NCBI GenBank assembly: GCA_017481595.1
Contig: JAFUOY010000022.1
Span: 40,713-104,712, forward strand
Direction: 5' to 3'
Length of the DNA stretch: 64,000 bases
Source of the DNA: Clostridia bacterium
GTDB taxonomy: Bacteria > Bacillota > Clostridia > Oscillospirales > CAG-272
Shown: piece by piece, positions 15,346 through 58,134 of the stretch
How positions within the stretch are numbered: position 1 is the stretch's first letter
Layout of the letters: each line of letters begins with the position of its first letter
The notes under the pieces: generated by a model
Databases searched by the model: none
What the model saw: the letters and a program-made list of their open reading frames with translations, nothing else
Told to the model about the DNA's origin: nothing
Program-made: the position numbers and the translations under genes

Positions 15346-17700
15346 ATGAAAAAATTAATGTCAATATTGTTAGTGTTACTTATGCTGACGTCCGTTCTTG
15401 CCTCCTGCGGTGGAAATGATGAAACTACAACAACGGAATTTCCCACAACAGAAGCACCTACAACGGAAGCGCCAACAACCGAAGCTCCCACTACGGAAGC
15501 GCCAACTACGGAAGCTCCTACAACGGAAGTGCCAACAACCGAAGCACCTACAACGGAAGCGCCAACAACCGAAGTACCAACAACGGAAGCTCCCACTACG
15601 GAAGTCCCTACAACACTTCCTCCCGCAGATGACAACGCTCCGAAGGAAATGGTTACAATTACCTTTGATACTAAAGGAGGACCAACGATTCCGAGCCAAA
15701 TAGTAGAAAAAGGCTCCTTAGTAAGAAAACCTGATGGTCCATCAAGATTAGGCTATATTTTTTACGGTTGGTACATAAACGATAAACAATGGTTGGGCAG
15801 ATTTGTTGCTGAGGAAGATACCGTTGTTGAAGCAAAATGGATTCCTGCAGTATATAATATAAAATATGTATTAAACGGCGGCGTAAATAACGGAGAAAAT
15901 AAAACTTCACATACCATAGAGGCTGATGGATTTGTATTGAAGGACCCAGTCAAGGAAGGCGCGAACTTCCTTGGTTGGTATACTGATTACGAATTTAAAA
16001 ATAAGATTACCGAAATTAAAAAAGGTGATATAGGAAATCTGGTATTATATGCAAAATGGGATGATCATAATACAGATACAGGTAATAACGGATCTGGCAG
16101 TACAGGTAATAACGGATTTGACAATACAGGTATAAGTGTTAACGGACTTACACTTGTACTCGATGGAAATGGATATAAAGTAACAAAATGTGCAAAATAT
16201 GTAGATAAAGCGGTAATTCCCGCAACACACGAAGGGTTGCCTGTTACCTCTATAGGTGACGGTGCATTTAGATACTGTGATTATCTTAAAAGCATTACAA
16301 TACCCAATAGCGTTACTTCTATAGGTGTTGACGCGTTTTACAGGTGCTCTTCTCTTACAGATATTACAATACCTGATAGTGTTACTTCTATAGGCGCCTG
16401 CGCGTTTTACGAGTGCACTTCTCTTACAAGCATTAAAATACCCAATGGCGTTACGTCTATAGGTTTTGGTGCGTTTGCCTGTTGCTCATCCCTTACAAGT
16501 ATTACGATACCCAATAGCATTACTTCCATAGATAACAGTGTTTTTTCAGGTTGCGAATCTCTTACAAGTATTACAATACCCGATAGCGTTACATCTATAG
16601 GTTATGAAGCGTTTTATGAGTGCACTTCTCTTACAAGTATAAATGTTGGTGAAAATAACGAGAATTATAAATCCATAGACGGTGTATTGTTCAGCAAAGA
16701 CGGAAAAACCTTAATTGCTTATCCGGCAGGAAAAGGAACGTCATATAGTATACCAAATCACGTTACTTCTATAGGTTATGGCGCATTTTACGGTTGTTCT
16801 TCTCTTGCAAGCGTTACAATACCCGATAGTGTTACTTCTATGGGTGAAAATGCATTTCGCGGTTGTTCTTCTCTTACAAGTGTTACAATCCCCAATAGCG
16901 TTACTTCTATAGAATGGAATGCGTTTCTTAATTGTACTTCCCTTGCGAATGTTACACTGCAAAACGGTGTTTTATCTATAGGTGATGATGCATTTGCAGG
17001 TTGCGAATCTCTTACAAGTATTACAATACCCGATAGCGTTACATCTATAGGTGACTACGCATTCTCCGGTTGCAAATCTCTTAAGAATGTTACTATGCAA
17101 AATAGTGCTCTATCTATAGGCGACTCCGCCTTCAAGGATTGCACGTCTATTGAAAGTCTTACAATTTCCAATAGAGTTACTAAGATACACAAACGCGCGT
17201 TTGAGGGCTGTACTTCCATTACAAATGCTACAGCTCCTGCAATGGCATTAAAATATATTCCAAAAGACAAGTTGAAAACGGTTACCATTTCCGGCGGCGC
17301 TGTTGTAGATGGGCTTGACGGATGCACGTCTCTTAAGAGCATTACGATACCGGATAGTGTTGTTTCCATAAATGAAGATGCATTTGAAGGCTGCACGTCT
17401 CTTAAGAGTATTACAATACCGGATAGCGTTGTTTCTATAGGTTGGAATGCGTTTAAGGGCTGTACTGCTCTTACCGACATTAAAATACCAAGCAGTGCTT
17501 TATCTATAGGCGGCCGCGCCTTTGAGGGATGTACGTCTCTTACAAGCATTACAATTCCCGAAAGCGTTACTGCTATGGGTAAAGACGTATTTATAGGTTG
17601 TTCTTCCCTTACGGTACGTTGTGAAATAGCCAGCAAGCCAACGTTCTGGAGATCCGAATGGAACTCTACAAATATACCTGTAGTTTGGGGTACAAAGTAA
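15346..17700 (+). CDS. surface lipoprotein with PTTEA linker, Listeria-Bacteroides (Flg_new) repeats and BspA-type leucine-rich repeats
   Basis: Start is the ATG after AGGAGG. Lipobox is LASCGG. GYIFYGWY and FLGWYTD repeat motifs are present. There are more than 15 LRR units of the form ITIPDSVTSIGxxAFxxCxSL. Confidence 0.85.
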   Translation: MKKLMSILLVLLMLTSVLASCGGNDETTTTEFPTTEAPTTEAPTTEAPTTEAPTTEAPTTEVPTTEAPTTEAPTTEVPTTEAPTTEVPTTLPPADDNAPKEMVTITFDTKGGPTIPSQIVEKGSLVRKPDGPSRLGYIFYGWYINDKQWLGRFVAEEDTVVEAKWIPAVYNIKYVLNGGVNNGENKTSHTIEADGFVLKDPVKEGANFLGWYTDYEFKNKITEIKKGDIGNLVLYAKWDDHNTDTGNNGSGSTGNNGFDNTGISVNGLTLVLDGNGYKVTKCAKYVDKAVIPATHEGLPVTSIGDGAFRYCDYLKSITIPNSVTSIGVDAFYRCSSLTDITIPDSVTSIGACAFYECTSLTSIKIPNGVTSIGFGAFACCSSLTSITIPNSITSIDNSVFSGCESLTSITIPDSVTSIGYEAFYECTSLTSINVGENNENYKSIDGVLFSKDGKTLIAYPAGKGTSYSIPNHVTSIGYGAFYGCSSLASVTIPDSVTSMGENAFRGCSSLTSVTIPNSVTSIEWNAFLNCTSLANVTLQNGVLSIGDDAFAGCESLTSITIPDSVTSIGDYAFSGCKSLKNVTMQNSALSIGDSAFKDCTSIESLTISNRVTKIHKRAFEGCTSITNATAPAMALKYIPKDKLKTVTISGGAVVDGLDGCTSLKSITIPDSVVSINEDAFEGCTSLKSITIPDSVVSIGWNAFKGCTALTDIKIPSSALSIGGRAFEGCTSLTSITIPESVTAMGKDVFIGCSSLTVRCEIASKPTFWRSEWNSTNIPVVWGTK
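15427..15615 (+). repeat. tandem 15-nt repeat encoding (PTTE[AV])x12 linker
   Basis: Direct reading of the sequence. Units vary at synonymous positions. The minus-strand ORFs across this stretch are shadows. Confidence 0.9.
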
Positions 17701-39134: not shown

Positions 39135-39342
39135 ATATACGTGGGGGAAAGTAACGGTGTAAGTCCGTCGCAACAGCCATTGCCGTCACAGTCGGAATGC
39201 CACGCGTATATTTTTGGCAAAAGGCCGAATGGTAAAACCACCCTTGGGCAATATCCGTAAGGAGAGAAGGGAGGAGCCAAAGAAAAGGAGACGCTTTAAA
39301 ATGCTCGCCGTAGGTTAATAAAAAACAGGCGCAGATTTTTTT
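39135..39342 (+). promoter_or_regulatory. probable cobalamin riboswitch (class-II / AdoCbl-variant-like aptamer 39135-39211) with downstream platform and weak terminator (39302-39342)
   Basis: P1 pairs ATATACGTGG with CCAC(GC)GTATAT. The core is GGGAAAGUAACGGUGUAAGUCCGU plus a B12-box-like GUCGGAAUGCCAC. The downstream gene family (DUF4430) is commonly B12-regulated. Not verified with a covariance model. Confidence 0.6.
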
Positions 39343-39397
39343 GTGTCTTGCTCTCTTTGTTTTATCATATATAGATAAAAGAAAAGAGGAAGAAAAA

Positions 39398-39811
39398 ATG
39401 AAAAGACTTCTATCACTCACCCTTGCGCTGCTGATGATATGCAGTATGTGCATCTTCACCGTTTCCTGCGGTGAAACCAACGAAAAAATGCTTTATACCG
39501 AGGATACTACCCTTGGTACGGGAGCAAAAACCATTACCTTTAACGTAGAGCATAAGGATGGAACGAAAATCAAGTTCACCATCAAAACGGACAAATCCCT
39601 GCTTTCCGACGCTCTTTTGGAGCATAGCCTTATAGAAGGGGAAAACGGTGACTTTGGCATTTACGTAAAAAAGGTAAACGGTATAACCCAGGATTATGAT
39701 ATTGATAAATCCTATTGGGCATTGTACATAGACGGTGAGTACGCTCTTACAGGAGCATATTCCACCGAAATAACCGACGGCGGAGAATATACCTTCAAGG
39801 TATCTTACTGA
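39398..39811 (+). CDS. DUF4430 (transcobalamin-like) lipoprotein
   Basis: The start is MKRLLSLTLALLMICSMCIFTVSCG (lipobox), after GAGGAAG. DUF4430-like blocks include WALYIDGEYA. Confidence 0.7.
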   Translation: MKRLLSLTLALLMICSMCIFTVSCGETNEKMLYTEDTTLGTGAKTITFNVEHKDGTKIKFTIKTDKSLLSDALLEHSLIEGENGDFGIYVKKVNGITQDYDIDKSYWALYIDGEYALTGAYSTEITDGGEYTFKVSY

Positions 39812-39892
39812 TAAAAAAGAGGACGGAGTAAAGGGCTGTACTCTTAAGGACAGTTTTAAGTTCAATAGAATATAGTACCTACCGACAGGAAA

Positions 39893-39930
39893 AGGACAGA
39901 GAATGTTTTTACATTCTCTGTCCTCTTTTC
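39893..39930. terminator. bidirectional intrinsic terminator
   Basis: Perfect 14-bp stem AGGACAGAGAATGT-TTTT-ACATTCTCTGTCCT with A- and T-rich flanks. A near copy lies at 26196-26232. Confidence 0.8.
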
Positions 39931-39941
39931 TTGACAAGAAC

Positions 39942-40171
39942 TGCATTTGTAGACACAAATGCATATAGTGAAATATTTTGCTTTGCAAAATGTGAAATAA
40001 TGTTCTGTCGAACATTGTGAAATATCTCGCTCTGCTCGATGTGAAATGAAATAAATCCCCTCACGCCCGCAGGCATTTCACTCGCTGAAAGCGAATTTCA
40101 CACACGAAGTGCATTTCACAAATCCCGTAAGGGATTTATTTCGTTGCGTAGTGTCCTTAAGGGCACTACGC
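39942..40171. repeat. word-hairpin array A (GTGAAAT x4 / ATTTCAC x3-4 with interleaved unique mini-hairpins)
   Basis: Direct reading of the sequence; see findings for coordinates. Confidence 0.8.
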
Positions 40172-40201: not shown

Positions 40202-41791
40202 TTATTCCTCAGTGTAACTGCCCCAAGCCTTGTTCCACTCCGCTATTGTTTCAAGAGCTGCGGGAGACCTTTTTTCGTAGTACTCATCAAAGTTGTTTTT
40301 GTAGTTAGCGTATGTACCGAAAAGAGAGAAAAGGCTACCCCAGCCTACCGCTTCACCCGGATCATATGAAATATTCGGTATGATATAATCGGTTAACATT
40401 TCAATATCCTTATCGGAGGAAAAGCCCGTTTTCAAGATTTTGATATATTCCTTCATAACGTATTCTTCACCCGTCCAGAAAAGTACGTCCATAAAGTAAT
40501 CTGACATGTTTCTGTCCTGTGTTATTTTTGGAATACACATAGCGACGGACATCTGTGTTGAGCAAGGAACACGGTATCTGCCTTGCTCCTCATTAAGCAT
40601 AGGAAACGGAACTATTCCTTTATCCTCCAACTGATCAGAATAACTTAAGGTGTCACTTAAAAACAAGATCTTGTCTTTTTTAAATCCGTCTGCATCGTTG
40701 GGACCCCAACTTCCGTATCCACTATAATCCTTGTACCAATTTGCTTTGCTTGTATAGATTATAGCGTCAATAATACCGTCAACGTTTTCATCATTTGTTA
40801 TAAGCTCCCATTCACCTGTAGCCTTATTCACTCCCCCTCGGGTAACGTCAAAAAAGTTGAAAAACCGATCTGATGAATAATTGCGAAGTCCATGCACGTA
40901 TCTGAATCTATCTTCGCTATCGCCGTTGTCGGAATATACAGCCTCACAGTAGCCAACTAACTTGTCATAGGTCCATTTGCCTTCCTTTACTAATTTATAA
41001 AGGTCCTCAATGCCGTTTTCACTTACTTCACCCATAAGATTTTTATTAACGTAAAGCAAGTATGCCGTATGCTTTTCTAAATTGGAAAAGCTACCTGTTA
41101 CAAAGAAGGTGTGACCGTATGCTGTGTAGGCTTCTACAGAATTATCATTGTAATATGAATTTCTGAAATCTATAAATTCTCTGTCTGCAAGGTCGTATAC
41201 GTATCCGCCCGCAACGATTGCTTGCACGTTCATCATACGGGGAGCGGCAAGGTCGTAGTAGATGTTTTTCGCAAGGGTTGCTTCTTCAAGCGCTTTGGGC
41301 ATACCCGCCTTGGTAGCGTTTATCCAATTAACCTTAACACCGTACGTGTTTTCAATAAACTCGTTACGGTCGAGAACTGCCTGCTGGATCTGAACGCCGA
41401 ATTTGGCATCGTTTTCCTCAGTGATAAAAACCTCAGGCATTGCCCATGGCGCACCCGTAGCATACCACGTGGAGCAGGCAACGTTAAGCGTCTTACCGTT
41501 CCAAGTATCTCTTACGTCATTTTTGGATGACCAAATAACTTTGGGGCCTTTTGTAGAAGGAGCTTCAGTTGTAGGAACTTCAGTTGTAGGAGCTTCTGTT
41601 GTTGGAGCCTCGGTAGTAGGCGCTTCTGTTGTAGGGGTCTCGGTTGTTGGCGCTTCAGTTGTAGGAATCTCCGTAGTAGGAGTCTTAGTTGTTGGCGCTT
41701 CCGTAGTTGTGGACTCATCATTTCCACCGCAGGAGGCAAGTACGGACGTCAGCATAAGTAACACTAACAATATTGACATTAATTTTTTCAT
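40202..41791 (-). CDS. solute-binding-protein-like lipoprotein with PTTEA linker (orphan, no adjacent permease)
   Basis: The signal peptide and lipobox match the 15346 gene. The mature part resembles large family-1 ABC sugar-binding lipoproteins, but the family call is tentative. Confidence 0.5.
   Translation of the reverse strand: MKKLMSILLVLLMLTSVLASCGGNDESTTTEAPTTKTPTTEIPTTEAPTTETPTTEAPTTEAPTTEAPTTEVPTTEAPSTKGPKVIWSSKNDVRDTWNGKTLNVACSTWYATGAPWAMPEVFITEENDAKFGVQIQQAVLDRNEFIENTYGVKVNWINATKAGMPKALEEATLAKNIYYDLAAPRMMNVQAIVAGGYVYDLADREFIDFRNSYYNDNSVEAYTAYGHTFFVTGSFSNLEKHTAYLLYVNKNLMGEVSENGIEDLYKLVKEGKWTYDKLVGYCEAVYSDNGDSEDRFRYVHGLRNYSSDRFFNFFDVTRGGVNKATGEWELITNDENVDGIIDAIIYTSKANWYKDYSGYGSWGPNDADGFKKDKILFLSDTLSYSDQLEDKGIVPFPMLNEEQGRYRVPCSTQMSVAMCIPKITQDRNMSDYFMDVLFWTGEEYVMKEYIKILKTGFSSDKDIEMLTDYIIPNISYDPGEAVGWGSLFSLFGTYANYKNNFDEYYEKRSPAALETIAEWNKAWGSYTEE
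41561..41710 (-). repeat. tandem 15-nt repeat encoding (PTT[EK][ATIV])x10 linker
   Basis: Direct reading of the sequence. The plus-strand ORF 41403-41816 is a shadow. Confidence 0.9.
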
Positions 41792-55894: not shown

Positions 55895-56085
55895 ATAGTT
55901 TAGAGTTATGAGGCTCGCTTTCGCTCACCGTTATAAGCTTGCATAGCAAGCGTTATGATATGATTGCCCATCTAACCTATAACTTGGCGAATCCAATCAT
56001 AACGATACGAAGTATCTCATAACTCATAACTTGCCCGCAAGGGCAATCATAGTTTAGCGTGAATACTCCGTTAAGAGTATCACGC
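55895..56085. repeat. word-hairpin array B (GTTATGA/GTTATAA x3, TCATAAC x4-5, with interleaved unique mini-hairpins)
   Basis: Direct reading of the sequence; see findings for coordinates. Confidence 0.8.
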
Positions 56086-56106
56086 CAATTGGATGCACGG
56101 TTTTTA

Positions 56107-58134
56107 TTATTTTTCGTATATACAACAGCCCTGTACCTTTGCAACGACGGGGGCAGTATAGGAATCAAAGATAAACAGGGAATACTGTCTTTCCTCCTCA
56201 CCGGAGTCAAGTCTGTAAAATATCTTATTCATTATCTCGTCAATATCCTCGTCACTCGTATCATTTTGGAATCTGATAATAAAGGTGCTTGCAAAAAAGT
56301 CCTCGGTAATTATCTTCTTTACAAGATAGATATGGGTTATTTTACCCTGTCCTACGTTTACAATATGGTCTGTAAGCTCATTTTTAAGATCTTCGTCCAT
56401 ATCGTCAAGGGCAAGATCGTCATCTGGCGAAACGTAGCTTAACTGACTGAAAACGTCTTTTTGCTTTTGCTGTATCTCCACGCTCTTCTCCCGAAATTCG
56501 TCAAGCTCCTTCTGTAATCCCATCATACAAAGGAATTTACCGATAAGCTCAAGCCCTGCATCGATGTAATTGGAATTTTCCTCAATTGCCGTGTAAATAT
56601 CGTCAATGCCGCTCTTGTCGTATTTTAAAAGAAGGGCGTGACCTCTTGACATATAGGCTTCAGCCACGGACGCCTTTGTCTTGCTCCGTTTAATAAGCTC
56701 GTCACTTAACTCGTAAAGCTCATCTACCATACTTAATTTGTGCATCGCGCTCATGATTGGACGCGCCTCCTCAGAGGTAAGCTCTCTTTTGTTTTCGCGC
56801 CATTCGTTCACTATACTAAGGGGCTCAAGATATTCCTCTTTTCGCTCATTTTCGTAGTTGTCCTTGCCATTTTCATATATCTGATTGTCAATACGGGCAA
56901 GAGCTTTTTCAAATTCCCTGCGGTACTCTCCGTCAGAAGGAAGAGGTAATGTGTTAAGCTCACTTACTCCCACAGCCTCAAGTCGGCTGCGCACTATGGG
57001 ATGGGATGCGCTTCGCGCCTGTATTTCAGAAGAAATAAGCTTATTCCAAAATTCCTTTCTTTCGGGCAGCGCTTTGCGAAACGCGCCTAAAAGTATTTCT
57101 ATAACGTTTGGTCTGCGACTTTCGGGCTCGTAGAAATTATCCTTCATATGCATATAAAGCTCGTTAGAGAAATATTCGTTGTAGGCAAGCTTTATAAGAG
57201 AGGATGCGTACGCCTCGGGGTCGCCGTGCTCCAGAATGATCCTGTCGGCTATTTCCTCAATAAGCTGGGAAGAGGTCGTTCTGAATGAAAAATACTCAAA
57301 GGTGTATACAAAATCGCAATAGCGGAACAGCATACTGATTATTTTATTGTATTTTGTATCGTCAGCCTGGGTTATGTAATTAAATAAGCGCTGCTCCTTG
57401 TCCATGGGCTTTGTCGTGTGGGCAAATTCGTGAAGAAGCACCTGGTAAAGCTCCTCCTCCGTAAGTATATCAAGAAGCGCAACGCCAAGCTGGAGAGAGA
57501 ATACCTTACCGATTCTTGCAATGCCCGCATTACAGTCGGCAAGGAACACTATTTTAATTTCACCCTTTATACCAACAGTCTTTTGCGCCTTGTAGGCTAT
57601 GGAATAAATGTGTGGGTAGTCGCTTTCCGATACGTACTCGGAAAAATCGTACTTTTCCCCTGCAAGCTGTATTCTGTTGAAATATCCGATAATTACGTAA
57701 GCGGGGAAAATAGTTATTGCGGGGCTTAATTTACTTATGCCCAAAGCAAATGTGATAAATAAAGCGACAGCAAAGAGGATAAAGGAATACAAGCCAATAA
57801 AAAGGCGTAGGCGTACTATTTTTCCCGTAGCCCTTTCAAGGCTTTTGCGTGCCTCCGCCTGTCTTTCGAGGAAAAGATTTTGAGAGTCGGCAACGCTCAT
57901 ATCAAGCTTTTTCTTGTATCCCTTTGCAAGAAAGTAGTTTAGCGGAAGCAATATTATTGCTATAAAGAGTATCATACCCAAGGCTACGTAGCCCATTACG
58001 TTAACCTGCTCGTCAGTCAGCTTTAATGAGGTAACCGCGCCCAAAGCAAAGGTAAGTACACAAATTATTACGGTAAGGACCACGCGCGGGATGAAGCCCT
58101 TTTCTATGGATTTTTTATTGTTCATATTTTTCAC
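56107..58134 (-). CDS. membrane-bound HEXXH zinc metallopeptidase-like protein (M48/M56-like)
   Basis: N-terminal TM helices, an LLHEFAHT motif and a long helical C-terminal region. Confidence 0.55.
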   Translation of the reverse strand: MKNMNNKKSIEKGFIPRVVLTVIICVLTFALGAVTSLKLTDEQVNVMGYVALGMILFIAIILLPLNYFLAKGYKKKLDMSVADSQNLFLERQAEARKSLERATGKIVRLRLFIGLYSFILFAVALFITFALGISKLSPAITIFPAYVIIGYFNRIQLAGEKYDFSEYVSESDYPHIYSIAYKAQKTVGIKGEIKIVFLADCNAGIARIGKVFSLQLGVALLDILTEEELYQVLLHEFAHTTKPMDKEQRLFNYITQADDTKYNKIISMLFRYCDFVYTFEYFSFRTTSSQLIEEIADRIILEHGDPEAYASSLIKLAYNEYFSNELYMHMKDNFYEPESRRPNVIEILLGAFRKALPERKEFWNKLISSEIQARSASHPIVRSRLEAVGVSELNTLPLPSDGEYRREFEKALARIDNQIYENGKDNYENERKEEYLEPLSIVNEWRENKRELTSEEARPIMSAMHKLSMVDELYELSDELIKRSKTKASVAEAYMSRGHALLLKYDKSGIDDIYTAIEENSNYIDAGLELIGKFLCMMGLQKELDEFREKSVEIQQKQKDVFSQLSYVSPDDDLALDDMDEDLKNELTDHIVNVGQGKITHIYLVKKIITEDFFASTFIIRFQNDTSDEDIDEIMNKIFYRLDSGEEERQYSLFIFDSYTAPVVAKVQGCCIYEK

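Follow-up and report, generated by a model that had tools for sequence, protein, structure and literature searches.

Two-armed Gut-1 word-hairpin arrays of gut Clostridia and their association with PF05635 four-helix-bundle genes

An array of short words and hairpins between convergent genes

Array A fills the gap between two convergent genes of the window (the whole 64-kb stretch of DNA analysed), a plus-strand DUF4430 gene at 39341-39811 and a minus-strand gene at 40202-41791 whose 529-aa product returned no Pfam match. An earlier note on this DNA had described constant GTGAAAT words enclosing variable palindromic fillers, placed behind terminator-type hairpins, and both the layout and the position are borne out. 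Four GTGAAAT copies on the plus strand (starting at 39968, 39992, 40017 and 40041), three reverse complements (40075, 40095 and 40113) and a truncated ATTTC (40138) all lie where the note put them, and every interval hairpin and both bounding hairpins were found again (Table 1). The words are spaced 9-18 nt apart. The leading long hairpin, H(-1), lies ~30 nt past the stop of the 40202-41791 gene and has no T tract in this copy, and the minus strand inside array A offers no convincing sigma-70 promoter.

Two features of the earlier description change on closer reading. The unit at 40024-40040 is present, but what was called degenerate proves on the minus strand to be a conserved hairpin whose internal loop is a tandem G.A/A.G. 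Likewise, the 27-nt centre exists but is no plain spacer, as it holds a fourth hairpin together with a copy of the 3' arm of hairpin 1 (hp1) and a partial anti-word. This centre copy is complementary to the first word and the hp1 5' arm (40131-40142), the two forming an inverted repeat of 15 nt at 93%.

Table 1. Coordinates of array A, its context and array B in the window.
Feature	Position	Strand	Details
Terminator	39890..39927		Bidirectional intrinsic terminator of the plus-strand DUF4430 gene; context, outside the repeat
H0, trailing hairpin	39942..39963		TGCATTTGT-AGAC-ACAAATGCA
Left (second) arm	39966..40052	+	Inverted, weaker Gut-1 match; 43 bits, E = 3e-7, below gathering
Left-arm words	40041-40047, 40017-40023, 39992-39998, 39968-39974		ATTTCAC, read on the minus strand
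hp5	40024-40040		Left arm, minus-strand reading; tandem G.A
hp6	39999-40016		Left arm, minus-strand reading
hp7	39975-39991		Left arm, minus-strand reading
Centre copy	40048..40059	-	hp1 3' arm and partial anti-word; GGGATTTATTTC on the minus strand
Degenerate fifth word	40058-40064	-	GTGAGGG; its GG overlaps the centre copy
hp4	40065..40074	-	GCC-TGCG-GGC hairpin directly after the last word
Right (first) arm	40070..40146	-	Rfam Gut-1 match; 74.2 bits, gathering 50; minus-strand order w1, hp1, W, hp2, W, hp3, W, start of hp4
Right-arm words (W)	40113-40119, 40095-40101, 40075-40081	-	
hp3	40082-40094	-	Right arm
hp2	40102-40112	-	Right arm
hp1	40120-40137	-	Right arm
w1, partial first word	40138..40145	-	AACGAAAT on the minus strand; Rfam consensus CAaUGAAAU
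H(-1), leading long hairpin	40146..40171	-	GCGTAGTGCCC-TTAA-GGACACTACGC on the minus strand
Array B	55900..56090 (about)	-	Same architecture; word GTTATGA / TCATAAC

The controls that the earlier note called for came out in its favour. GTGAAAT occurs 24 times in the window against 10.7 +/- 3.3 in dinucleotide shuffles, none of 100 shuffles reaches 24, and 7 of the 24 copies are packed into 152 nt. Folded against shuffles, the 230-nt stretch gives z = -7.0 as RNA and z = -8.8 and -8.7 as DNA (minus and plus strand). A detector blind to the identity of the word returned zero arrays on shuffled sequence. The array-free shuffles and the fold z-scores of -7 to -9 thus rule out a chance origin.

The window carries other tandem repeats. 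At 16243-17489, 69-nt (23-codon) tandem repeats appear CRISPR-like in a k-mer scan and are split by TRF into degenerate 69/138-nt units with 66-80% identity; from their sequence they are probably protein-coding, of leucine-rich type. Tandem repeats of 15/30 nt (CAACAACGGAAGCGC units) occupy 15428-15614 and 41551-41705. A related CCTACAAC repeat sits inside the 529-aa ORF beside array A, which therefore has a low-complexity repeat region.

Array A is a member of the Gut-1 family

The earlier note knew of no described element with this layout. Rfam does hold one: the RF01706 (Gut-1) consensus, CAaUGAAAU-hairpin-GUGAAAU-hairpin-GUGAAAU-hairpin-GUGAAAU, has the same layout, and the right arm matches it over full model positions 1-77, the single match in the window above the gathering score. 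A more sensitive Rfam scan adds the left arm as a full-length plus-strand match. Weinberg et al. 2010 (PMC2864571) recorded no more of its occurrence than its presence in human-gut sequences, listing 43 examples, which they rated 'Y' as RNA on covariation and as not cis-regulatory. The flanks of that 2010 alignment (PMC2864571) already contain the inverted second arm, and some of its examples use another word, GUGAUAU, paired with AUAUCAC. We found no literature on Gut-1 after 2010. Array A is a complete, two-armed orphan member of this known family, orphan in the sense developed below.

In the published alignment file (PMC2864571, Gut-1.sto), row BAAY01013587.1 bears an insertion of ~230 nt in the array centre, flanked by the inverted repeats CGUGAAGACAGU ... 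ACUGUCUUCACG. From its sequence, the insertion has the look of a small mobile element that sits within a Gut-1 array.

The Gut-1 strand corresponds to the minus strand of the window; along it the element opens with H(-1) and w1, continues as hp1-W-hp2-W-hp3-W-hp4 and closes its first half with a degenerate fifth word, GTGAG. The second half runs from the copy of the hp1 3' arm with ATTTC through ATTTCAC, hp5, ATTTCAC, hp6, ATTTCAC and hp7 to a last ATTTCAC. Each arm therefore carries about five words and the arms are inverted, with the leading long hairpin and the centre copy as further elements of array A. The period is 16-22 nt in the first arm and 24-25 nt in the second.

Array B, in the same window, lies between the convergent genes 55143-55730 (+) and 56107-58134 (-). 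It too has a centre copy of an hp1 arm and a tandem G.A hairpin. The Rfam Gut-1 model gives no match on array B, and the two arrays of this one genome share almost no sequence. Across loci at least seven word types with an RTGA core occur (GTGAAAT, GGTGAAATC, ATGAAAT, GTGATAT, GTGAAGT, GTGATGT and GTTATGA), and further loci use ATGAAATC, GCTAAAT or CATCATT. Within an array the word is uniform; between the arms it is complementary. Arrays A and B of one genome use different words, which rules out a single word shared across the genome in the manner of Chi, DUS or KOPS.

Relatives in gut and rumen Clostridia

The earlier note had proposed a wider pattern search, and further arrays were indeed found across gut and rumen Clostridia MAGs. 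A scan that took a single genome from each species and looked for three spaced copies of GTGAAAT gave 120 loci; hairpin fillers are present in 66 arrays, spread over 63 of these loci. MAGs of Clostridia from gut or rumen (Oscillospiraceae, Ruminococcaceae, Acutalibacteraceae and Christensenellaceae) supply nearly all of them, and Akkermansia a few. Two arms are present in 35 of the 66; the rest were scored as single-armed, many of them at contig ends, where they may be incomplete. Twenty of the 66 adjoin a tRNA gene, and after tRNA genes the position of H(-1) is taken by an A6-hairpin-T6 bidirectional terminator directly 3' of the encoded CCA. The trailing hairpin H0 is kept in two loci orthologous to array A (L098 and L099).

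Some scanned loci depart from this plan. In L008 (3502-3849) two arrays stand in tandem, each with a GTGAAAT arm followed by a terminator and an arm with the non-complementary word CATCAT; the sole complementary pair is the innermost, GTGAAGG / CCTTCAT. Nine loci from Bacteroidales and other lineages (L002, L006, L021, L030, L045, L097, L104, L106 and L113) hold tandem GTGAAAT heptads or octamers without hairpins, and one of them (L113) gives a weak partial match to the four-helix-bundle family described in the next section.

Covariation was counted segment by segment, MAFFT having misaligned the right arm. In 22 arrays the hairpin stems are 88-97% Watson-Crick, against 33-54% when partner arms are swapped between arrays, and most hairpin positions show two to four pair types. 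The centre copy pairs with w1 and the hp1 5' arm at 90% Watson-Crick (control, 45%) in the same 22 arrays. This second helix is conserved and overlaps the hp1 5' arm; hence it competes with hp1. The internal loop of hp5 is conserved as well, in the form ATCGAnC-GAA-GnGAGAT with its tandem G.A/A.G.

Arrays stand upstream of a four-helix-bundle gene

Directly downstream of several arrays lies a gene for a 115-aa protein matching PF05635 (88.7 bits) and TIGR02436 (98.5 bits). PF05635 is the '23S rRNA intervening sequence protein' family and TIGR02436 the 'four helix bundle protein' family; the protein is Avd-like, and we call it 4HB. PF05635 members are known beside or inside stable-RNA genes, as in the intervening sequences of 23S rRNA. 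Arrays with the gene downstream include L009, L043, L061, L074, L059, L028 and L241, and in the genome scan it adjoins only 6 of the 66 GTGAAAT arrays. The closest solved homologue, PDB 2rld, has five chains.

The reverse test began from the protein. We fetched 80 metagenome loci by 4HB homology alone and searched them for a 6-mer occurring at least three times with hairpin fillers, supplemented by inspection by eye; detectors built on an exact 7-mer or on greedy hairpin chains had overlooked many arrays. Word-hairpin arrays were present in 25 of the 80 loci and in none of the shuffles. In 23 of these 25 the array lay no more than ~350 nt upstream of the 4HB gene, although such stretches make up ~10% of the DNA searched. 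The closest 4HB homologues had an array upstream in 13 of 13 cases (12 by the detector, L249 by eye).

Gene-linked loci repeat one module: a tRNA, a terminator, a two-armed array, a TGnTATAAT promoter, a ribosome-binding site and the 4HB gene. The -35 hexamer of this promoter abuts or overlaps the last word. The word follows the protein, in that the nearest 4HB neighbour usually carries the same or a closely related word, and the array B word GTTATGA recurs upstream of another 4HB gene (L276). More distant 4HB genes have inverted, contiguous heptads without hairpins in the same slot, between a tRNA gene with its terminator and the promoter of the gene.

Contiguous-heptad loci of this kind are L268, L270, L273, L282, L086, L114, L287, L290, L271 and L023, and one reads tatTCAC tctTCAC tatTCAC tttTCAC ... 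GTAATAA GTAATA GTGAATA. In the three loci examined closely (L268, L270 and L086), the centre segment copies one arm of the terminator hairpin.

A phmmer search of the 64-kb window found no 4HB ORF. The window copy is thus an orphan, with an architecture and a word identical to those of gene-linked copies. The link of the family to PF05635 genes and to tRNA terminators appears to be new, as do the DNA-type signals described below; our search for literature joining PF05635 to repeats returned nothing.

Several explanations of the gene association were considered and set aside. A defence system was rejected, the 4HB protein having no PADLOC match. A diversity-generating retroelement (DGR) context does not fit, as the genes beside 4HB vary over 12 loci with no conserved partner such as a reverse transcriptase. 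Nor is the array a cis-regulatory leader of one gene family: the genes downstream of single-armed arrays are unrelated, one being a GNAT gene by Pfam and others, going by their translations, presumably ligA-like, topA-like and an alpha-mannosidase-like protein.

Possible readings as RNA element, mobile DNA or terminator stack

Minimum free-energy (MFE) folds of both strands, with RNA or DNA parameters, contain 7-bp word/anti-word helices from which the hairpins protrude. These folds are the rod of stacked junctions that the earlier note envisaged, which thereby stands as a possible structure. Stems are 94% Watson-Crick, and among 596 pairs there are 11 G.T against 7 A.C, which gave no signal when we sought to assign the strand from wobble pairs. 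With DNA parameters the two strands fold about equally well. Loops show a polarity. First-arm loops on the Gut-1 strand are mostly C(TTC)G and C(TGC)G, and so C(GAA)G and C(GCA)G on the opposite strand, while second-arm loops on the Gut-1 strand are mostly C(GAA)G, GTTA, GCAA and GTAA. The bias flips between the arms, so the stabilising G...A loops always fall on the strand that reads ATTTCAC. C(GNA)G is the classic hyperstable loop of DNA mini-hairpins. Most copies follow a strong terminator and precede a promoter. At least 12 single-armed arrays sit well inside contigs with no ATTTCAC within ~200 nt, and their words are still identical; pairing alone therefore cannot explain why the words are uniform. 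Taken together, the lack of a G.U excess, the arm-flipped loop polarity and the position between terminator and promoter would lean towards DNA.

These signals bear on whether the element is a structured non-coding RNA, in which one transcript would span both arms and fold GUGAAAU and AUUUCAC into a rod of stacked four-way junctions, serving as a sponge, a scaffold, a 3' trailer or a 5' leader. The covariance-model score of the right arm, the 2010 'Y' rating (PMC2864571) and the strong hairpin covariation speak for it, as does the RNA fold, whose word/anti-word helices come with the low z-score given above. On the minus strand the left arm has GNRA-type loops besides the conserved tandem G.A hairpin. 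At the word level, the innermost pair of L062 shows a compensatory change (GTGAAGT with ACTTCAC), and the ATTTCAT anti-words of L004 and L089 would pair with GUGAAAU through a G.U. The arrays of L074 and L241 must be co-transcribed with the 4HB gene, since its ribosome-binding site lies directly 3' of the last word. Yet a covarying RNA with so few G.U over A.C pairs would be unusual, and the flip in loop polarity means that a single transcript has stabilising loops in one arm only. Most copies stand between terminator and promoter, and the window copy lacks a convincing minus-strand promoter. Internal single-armed arrays keep their words without an anti-word partner, identical words leave the pairing register ambiguous, and a competing helix is conserved. 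On balance we regard an RNA function as unlikely.

Some of the same signals would suit a dispersed, non-autonomous DNA repeat of the REP/BIME or MITE kind, spread through a single-stranded DNA intermediate or by gene conversion, a reading compatible with the protein-binding model below. Such a repeat would carry its own terminator hairpin and land at 3' ends, above all those of tRNA genes, and its hairpins would be single-stranded-DNA recognition structures. The copies themselves supply the best case. Those at 232 and 2971 of L035 are alike from the terminator A-tract to the last word, L067 also has two near-identical, sharply bounded copies, and in both loci the copies end different transcription units. 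The JAZTZP01 MAG has at least three near-identical copies (L080, L081 and L095), with a second type in L078; their place at contig ends indicates a multicopy repeat on which the assembly breaks. Many copies separate a gene or tRNA from what seems to be its original terminator, the triloops are of the C(GNA)G kind, and the perfect palindromic stems have no wobble bias. The orthologous locus L098 (4277-4431, against 39966-40146 of the window) has its whole first arm replaced by another subtype (hp1 arm TTTGCCC, periods 16 and 22) and keeps the second arm, H0 and the flank; judging by this one comparison, arms seem to be exchanged as modules. Against a mobile repeat, no transposase, target-site duplication or usual terminal inverted repeats were seen, and arrays A and B of one genome have almost no common sequence. 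Orthologous copies persist across species with compensatory changes, which indicates selection rather than decay, and only ~6 of 120 viral-contig matches are true arrays. We hold this explanation improbable as it stands.

The four JAZTZP01 arrays are bounded by an AT-rich long hairpin, AAATTATAGTTTAT...ATAAACTATAATTT. The case for a phage origin is weak, as the ~6 true arrays among the 120 viral-contig matches again follow tRNA genes.

The setting between convergent genes and behind tRNA terminators also raises the thought of a passive backstop, in which stacked hairpins would act as terminator or insulator and halt read-through between convergent units or downstream of highly transcribed tRNA genes. 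On the strand with the stable loops each hairpin is followed by the U-rich AUUUCAC, and hp1 was flagged as terminator-like on the plus strand. The words TCATAAC and CATCATT, however, have no U tract, and a terminator stack leaves unexplained why words are identical, why they track 4HB clades and why arrays precede promoters. This reading has very little to recommend it.

Discussion

We favour, as a serious possibility that we still rate somewhat short of an even chance, that the heptads are recognition sites for the PF05635/TIGR02436 4HB protein and the palindromes are loop-out spacers. The functional units would be the words, about five per arm in inverted arms, and members of this protein family form pentamers. 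The fillers would fold, whether as hairpins of RNA or DNA or as a DNA cruciform, and bring the heptads side by side, so that the looped-out layout mimics the contiguous heptad arrays of more distant 4HB relatives; it is mainly the hairpin-free heptads of those distant genes that lead us to treat the hairpins as spacers. A gene-linked array, which abuts or overlaps the 4HB promoter, might act as an operator or an iteron-type platform. The window copy, with no 4HB gene in 64 kb, would be an orphan site bound in trans. Trans action has to be assumed, since the gene is beside just 6 of the 66 arrays and absent from the window. The array architecture, the hairpin covariation, the tRNA and terminator link, the 4HB gene link and the tracking of word with protein clade are observations; from them we infer binding, the DNA or RNA nature of the target, the matching of a pentamer to five words and any physiological role.

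Several points weigh against recognition by 4HB. Word and protein clade could vary together simply because linked DNA is inherited together. Binding to double-stranded DNA would account for the palindromic spacers only if the hairpins were extruded, and between convergent genes positive supercoiling works against that. The transcribed arrays of L074 and L241 would also fit an RNA target. Setting five words against a pentamer is numerology, and the model leaves the conserved alternative helix and the tandem G.A hairpin unexplained.

A bolder formulation, suggested by the sequences and in our view doubtful, is that Gut-1 and PF05635 together would constitute a new recognition system, in which a pentameric barrel reads five loop-out heptads, word and clade co-evolve, several word/protein pairs coexist in one genome (arrays A and B) and many orphan sites are seeded at the ends of tRNA and other genes. 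If true, the arrays would be the sites of a regulon, a platform of the partition type, or the trace left by a mobile module of a new kind. Gut-1 has stood in Rfam since 2010 as a gut-only 'sRNA' without a function, and the gene link gives the first testable idea for it. The non-DGR members of PF05635 ('S23p') are widespread and equally unexplained, so that the link makes both families one experiment. Should the DNA-type signals hold, what Rfam lists as an 'RNA' family would call for reinterpretation as DNA, either protein-binding or mobile. A rule independent of the word also serves annotation, since it finds arrays that the Rfam model misses, array B among them.

Comparison with known systems

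A CRISPR array was excluded: the repeats are 7 nt rather than ~23-50, the spacers are palindromic and the arms are inverted, and no CRISPR family came up when the window was scanned with Rfam at the gathering score. REP/BIME elements, associated with RAYT, come closer as extragenic palindromes at operon 3' ends or between convergent genes, with a short constant motif plus hairpin and clusters of alternating orientation. In REP, however, the palindrome itself is conserved genome-wide, whereas Gut-1 arrays conserve the 7-mer and every hairpin differs, within and between arrays A and B alike. No RAYT or IS200-type gene was seen.

To our knowledge, no member of the PF05635 family has a repeated-word target. 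The relative that bears on how a 4HB protein might read nucleic acid is Avd. It forms a pentameric barrel of positive charge that resembles S23 proteins, and a single RNA stem-loop is contacted by the same residues in each of the five protomers (bioRxiv 10.1101/2023.10.23.563531). Avd belongs to DGRs, and the array-linked 4HB genes differ from that setting: near them there is no reverse transcriptase, template repeat or variable repeat, and the downstream genes vary.

Array A resembles Gut-1 (RF01706) in its (G)UGAAAU words with three variable hairpins and in a gut-metagenome habitat. As published, Gut-1 is one arm, filed as an sRNA (Gene; sRNA) with no function. What sets the present description apart is a two-armed form in the neighbourhood of tRNA genes and terminators, with variant words, DNA-type signals and a 4HB link; the left arm (43 bits) and array B (no match) fall outside the Rfam threshold.

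The omega protein of pSM19035/inc18, a ribbon-helix-helix (RHH) protein described as ParB, binds 7-10 contiguous 5'-WATCACW-3' heptads in both orientations (PMC9499535). These heptads overlap promoters, including that of omega's own gene; at least four repeats are needed, and gaps abolish function (PMC9499535). The likeness lies in Firmicutes 7-nt words, direct and inverted, that overlap promoters, and the reverse complement WGTGATW shares a GTGA/TCAC core with GTGATAT, GTGAAAT and GTGATGT. The differences are equally plain: omega iterons are contiguous, without hairpin spacers, take one RHH dimer per heptad and sit on a plasmid, whereas the Gut-1-linked protein is a 4HB, the arrays are chromosomal, and the words of array A are separated rather than contiguous. 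By analogy, the resemblance would be one of function and not of membership, and it makes the omega iterons the closest known working analogue of these arrays.
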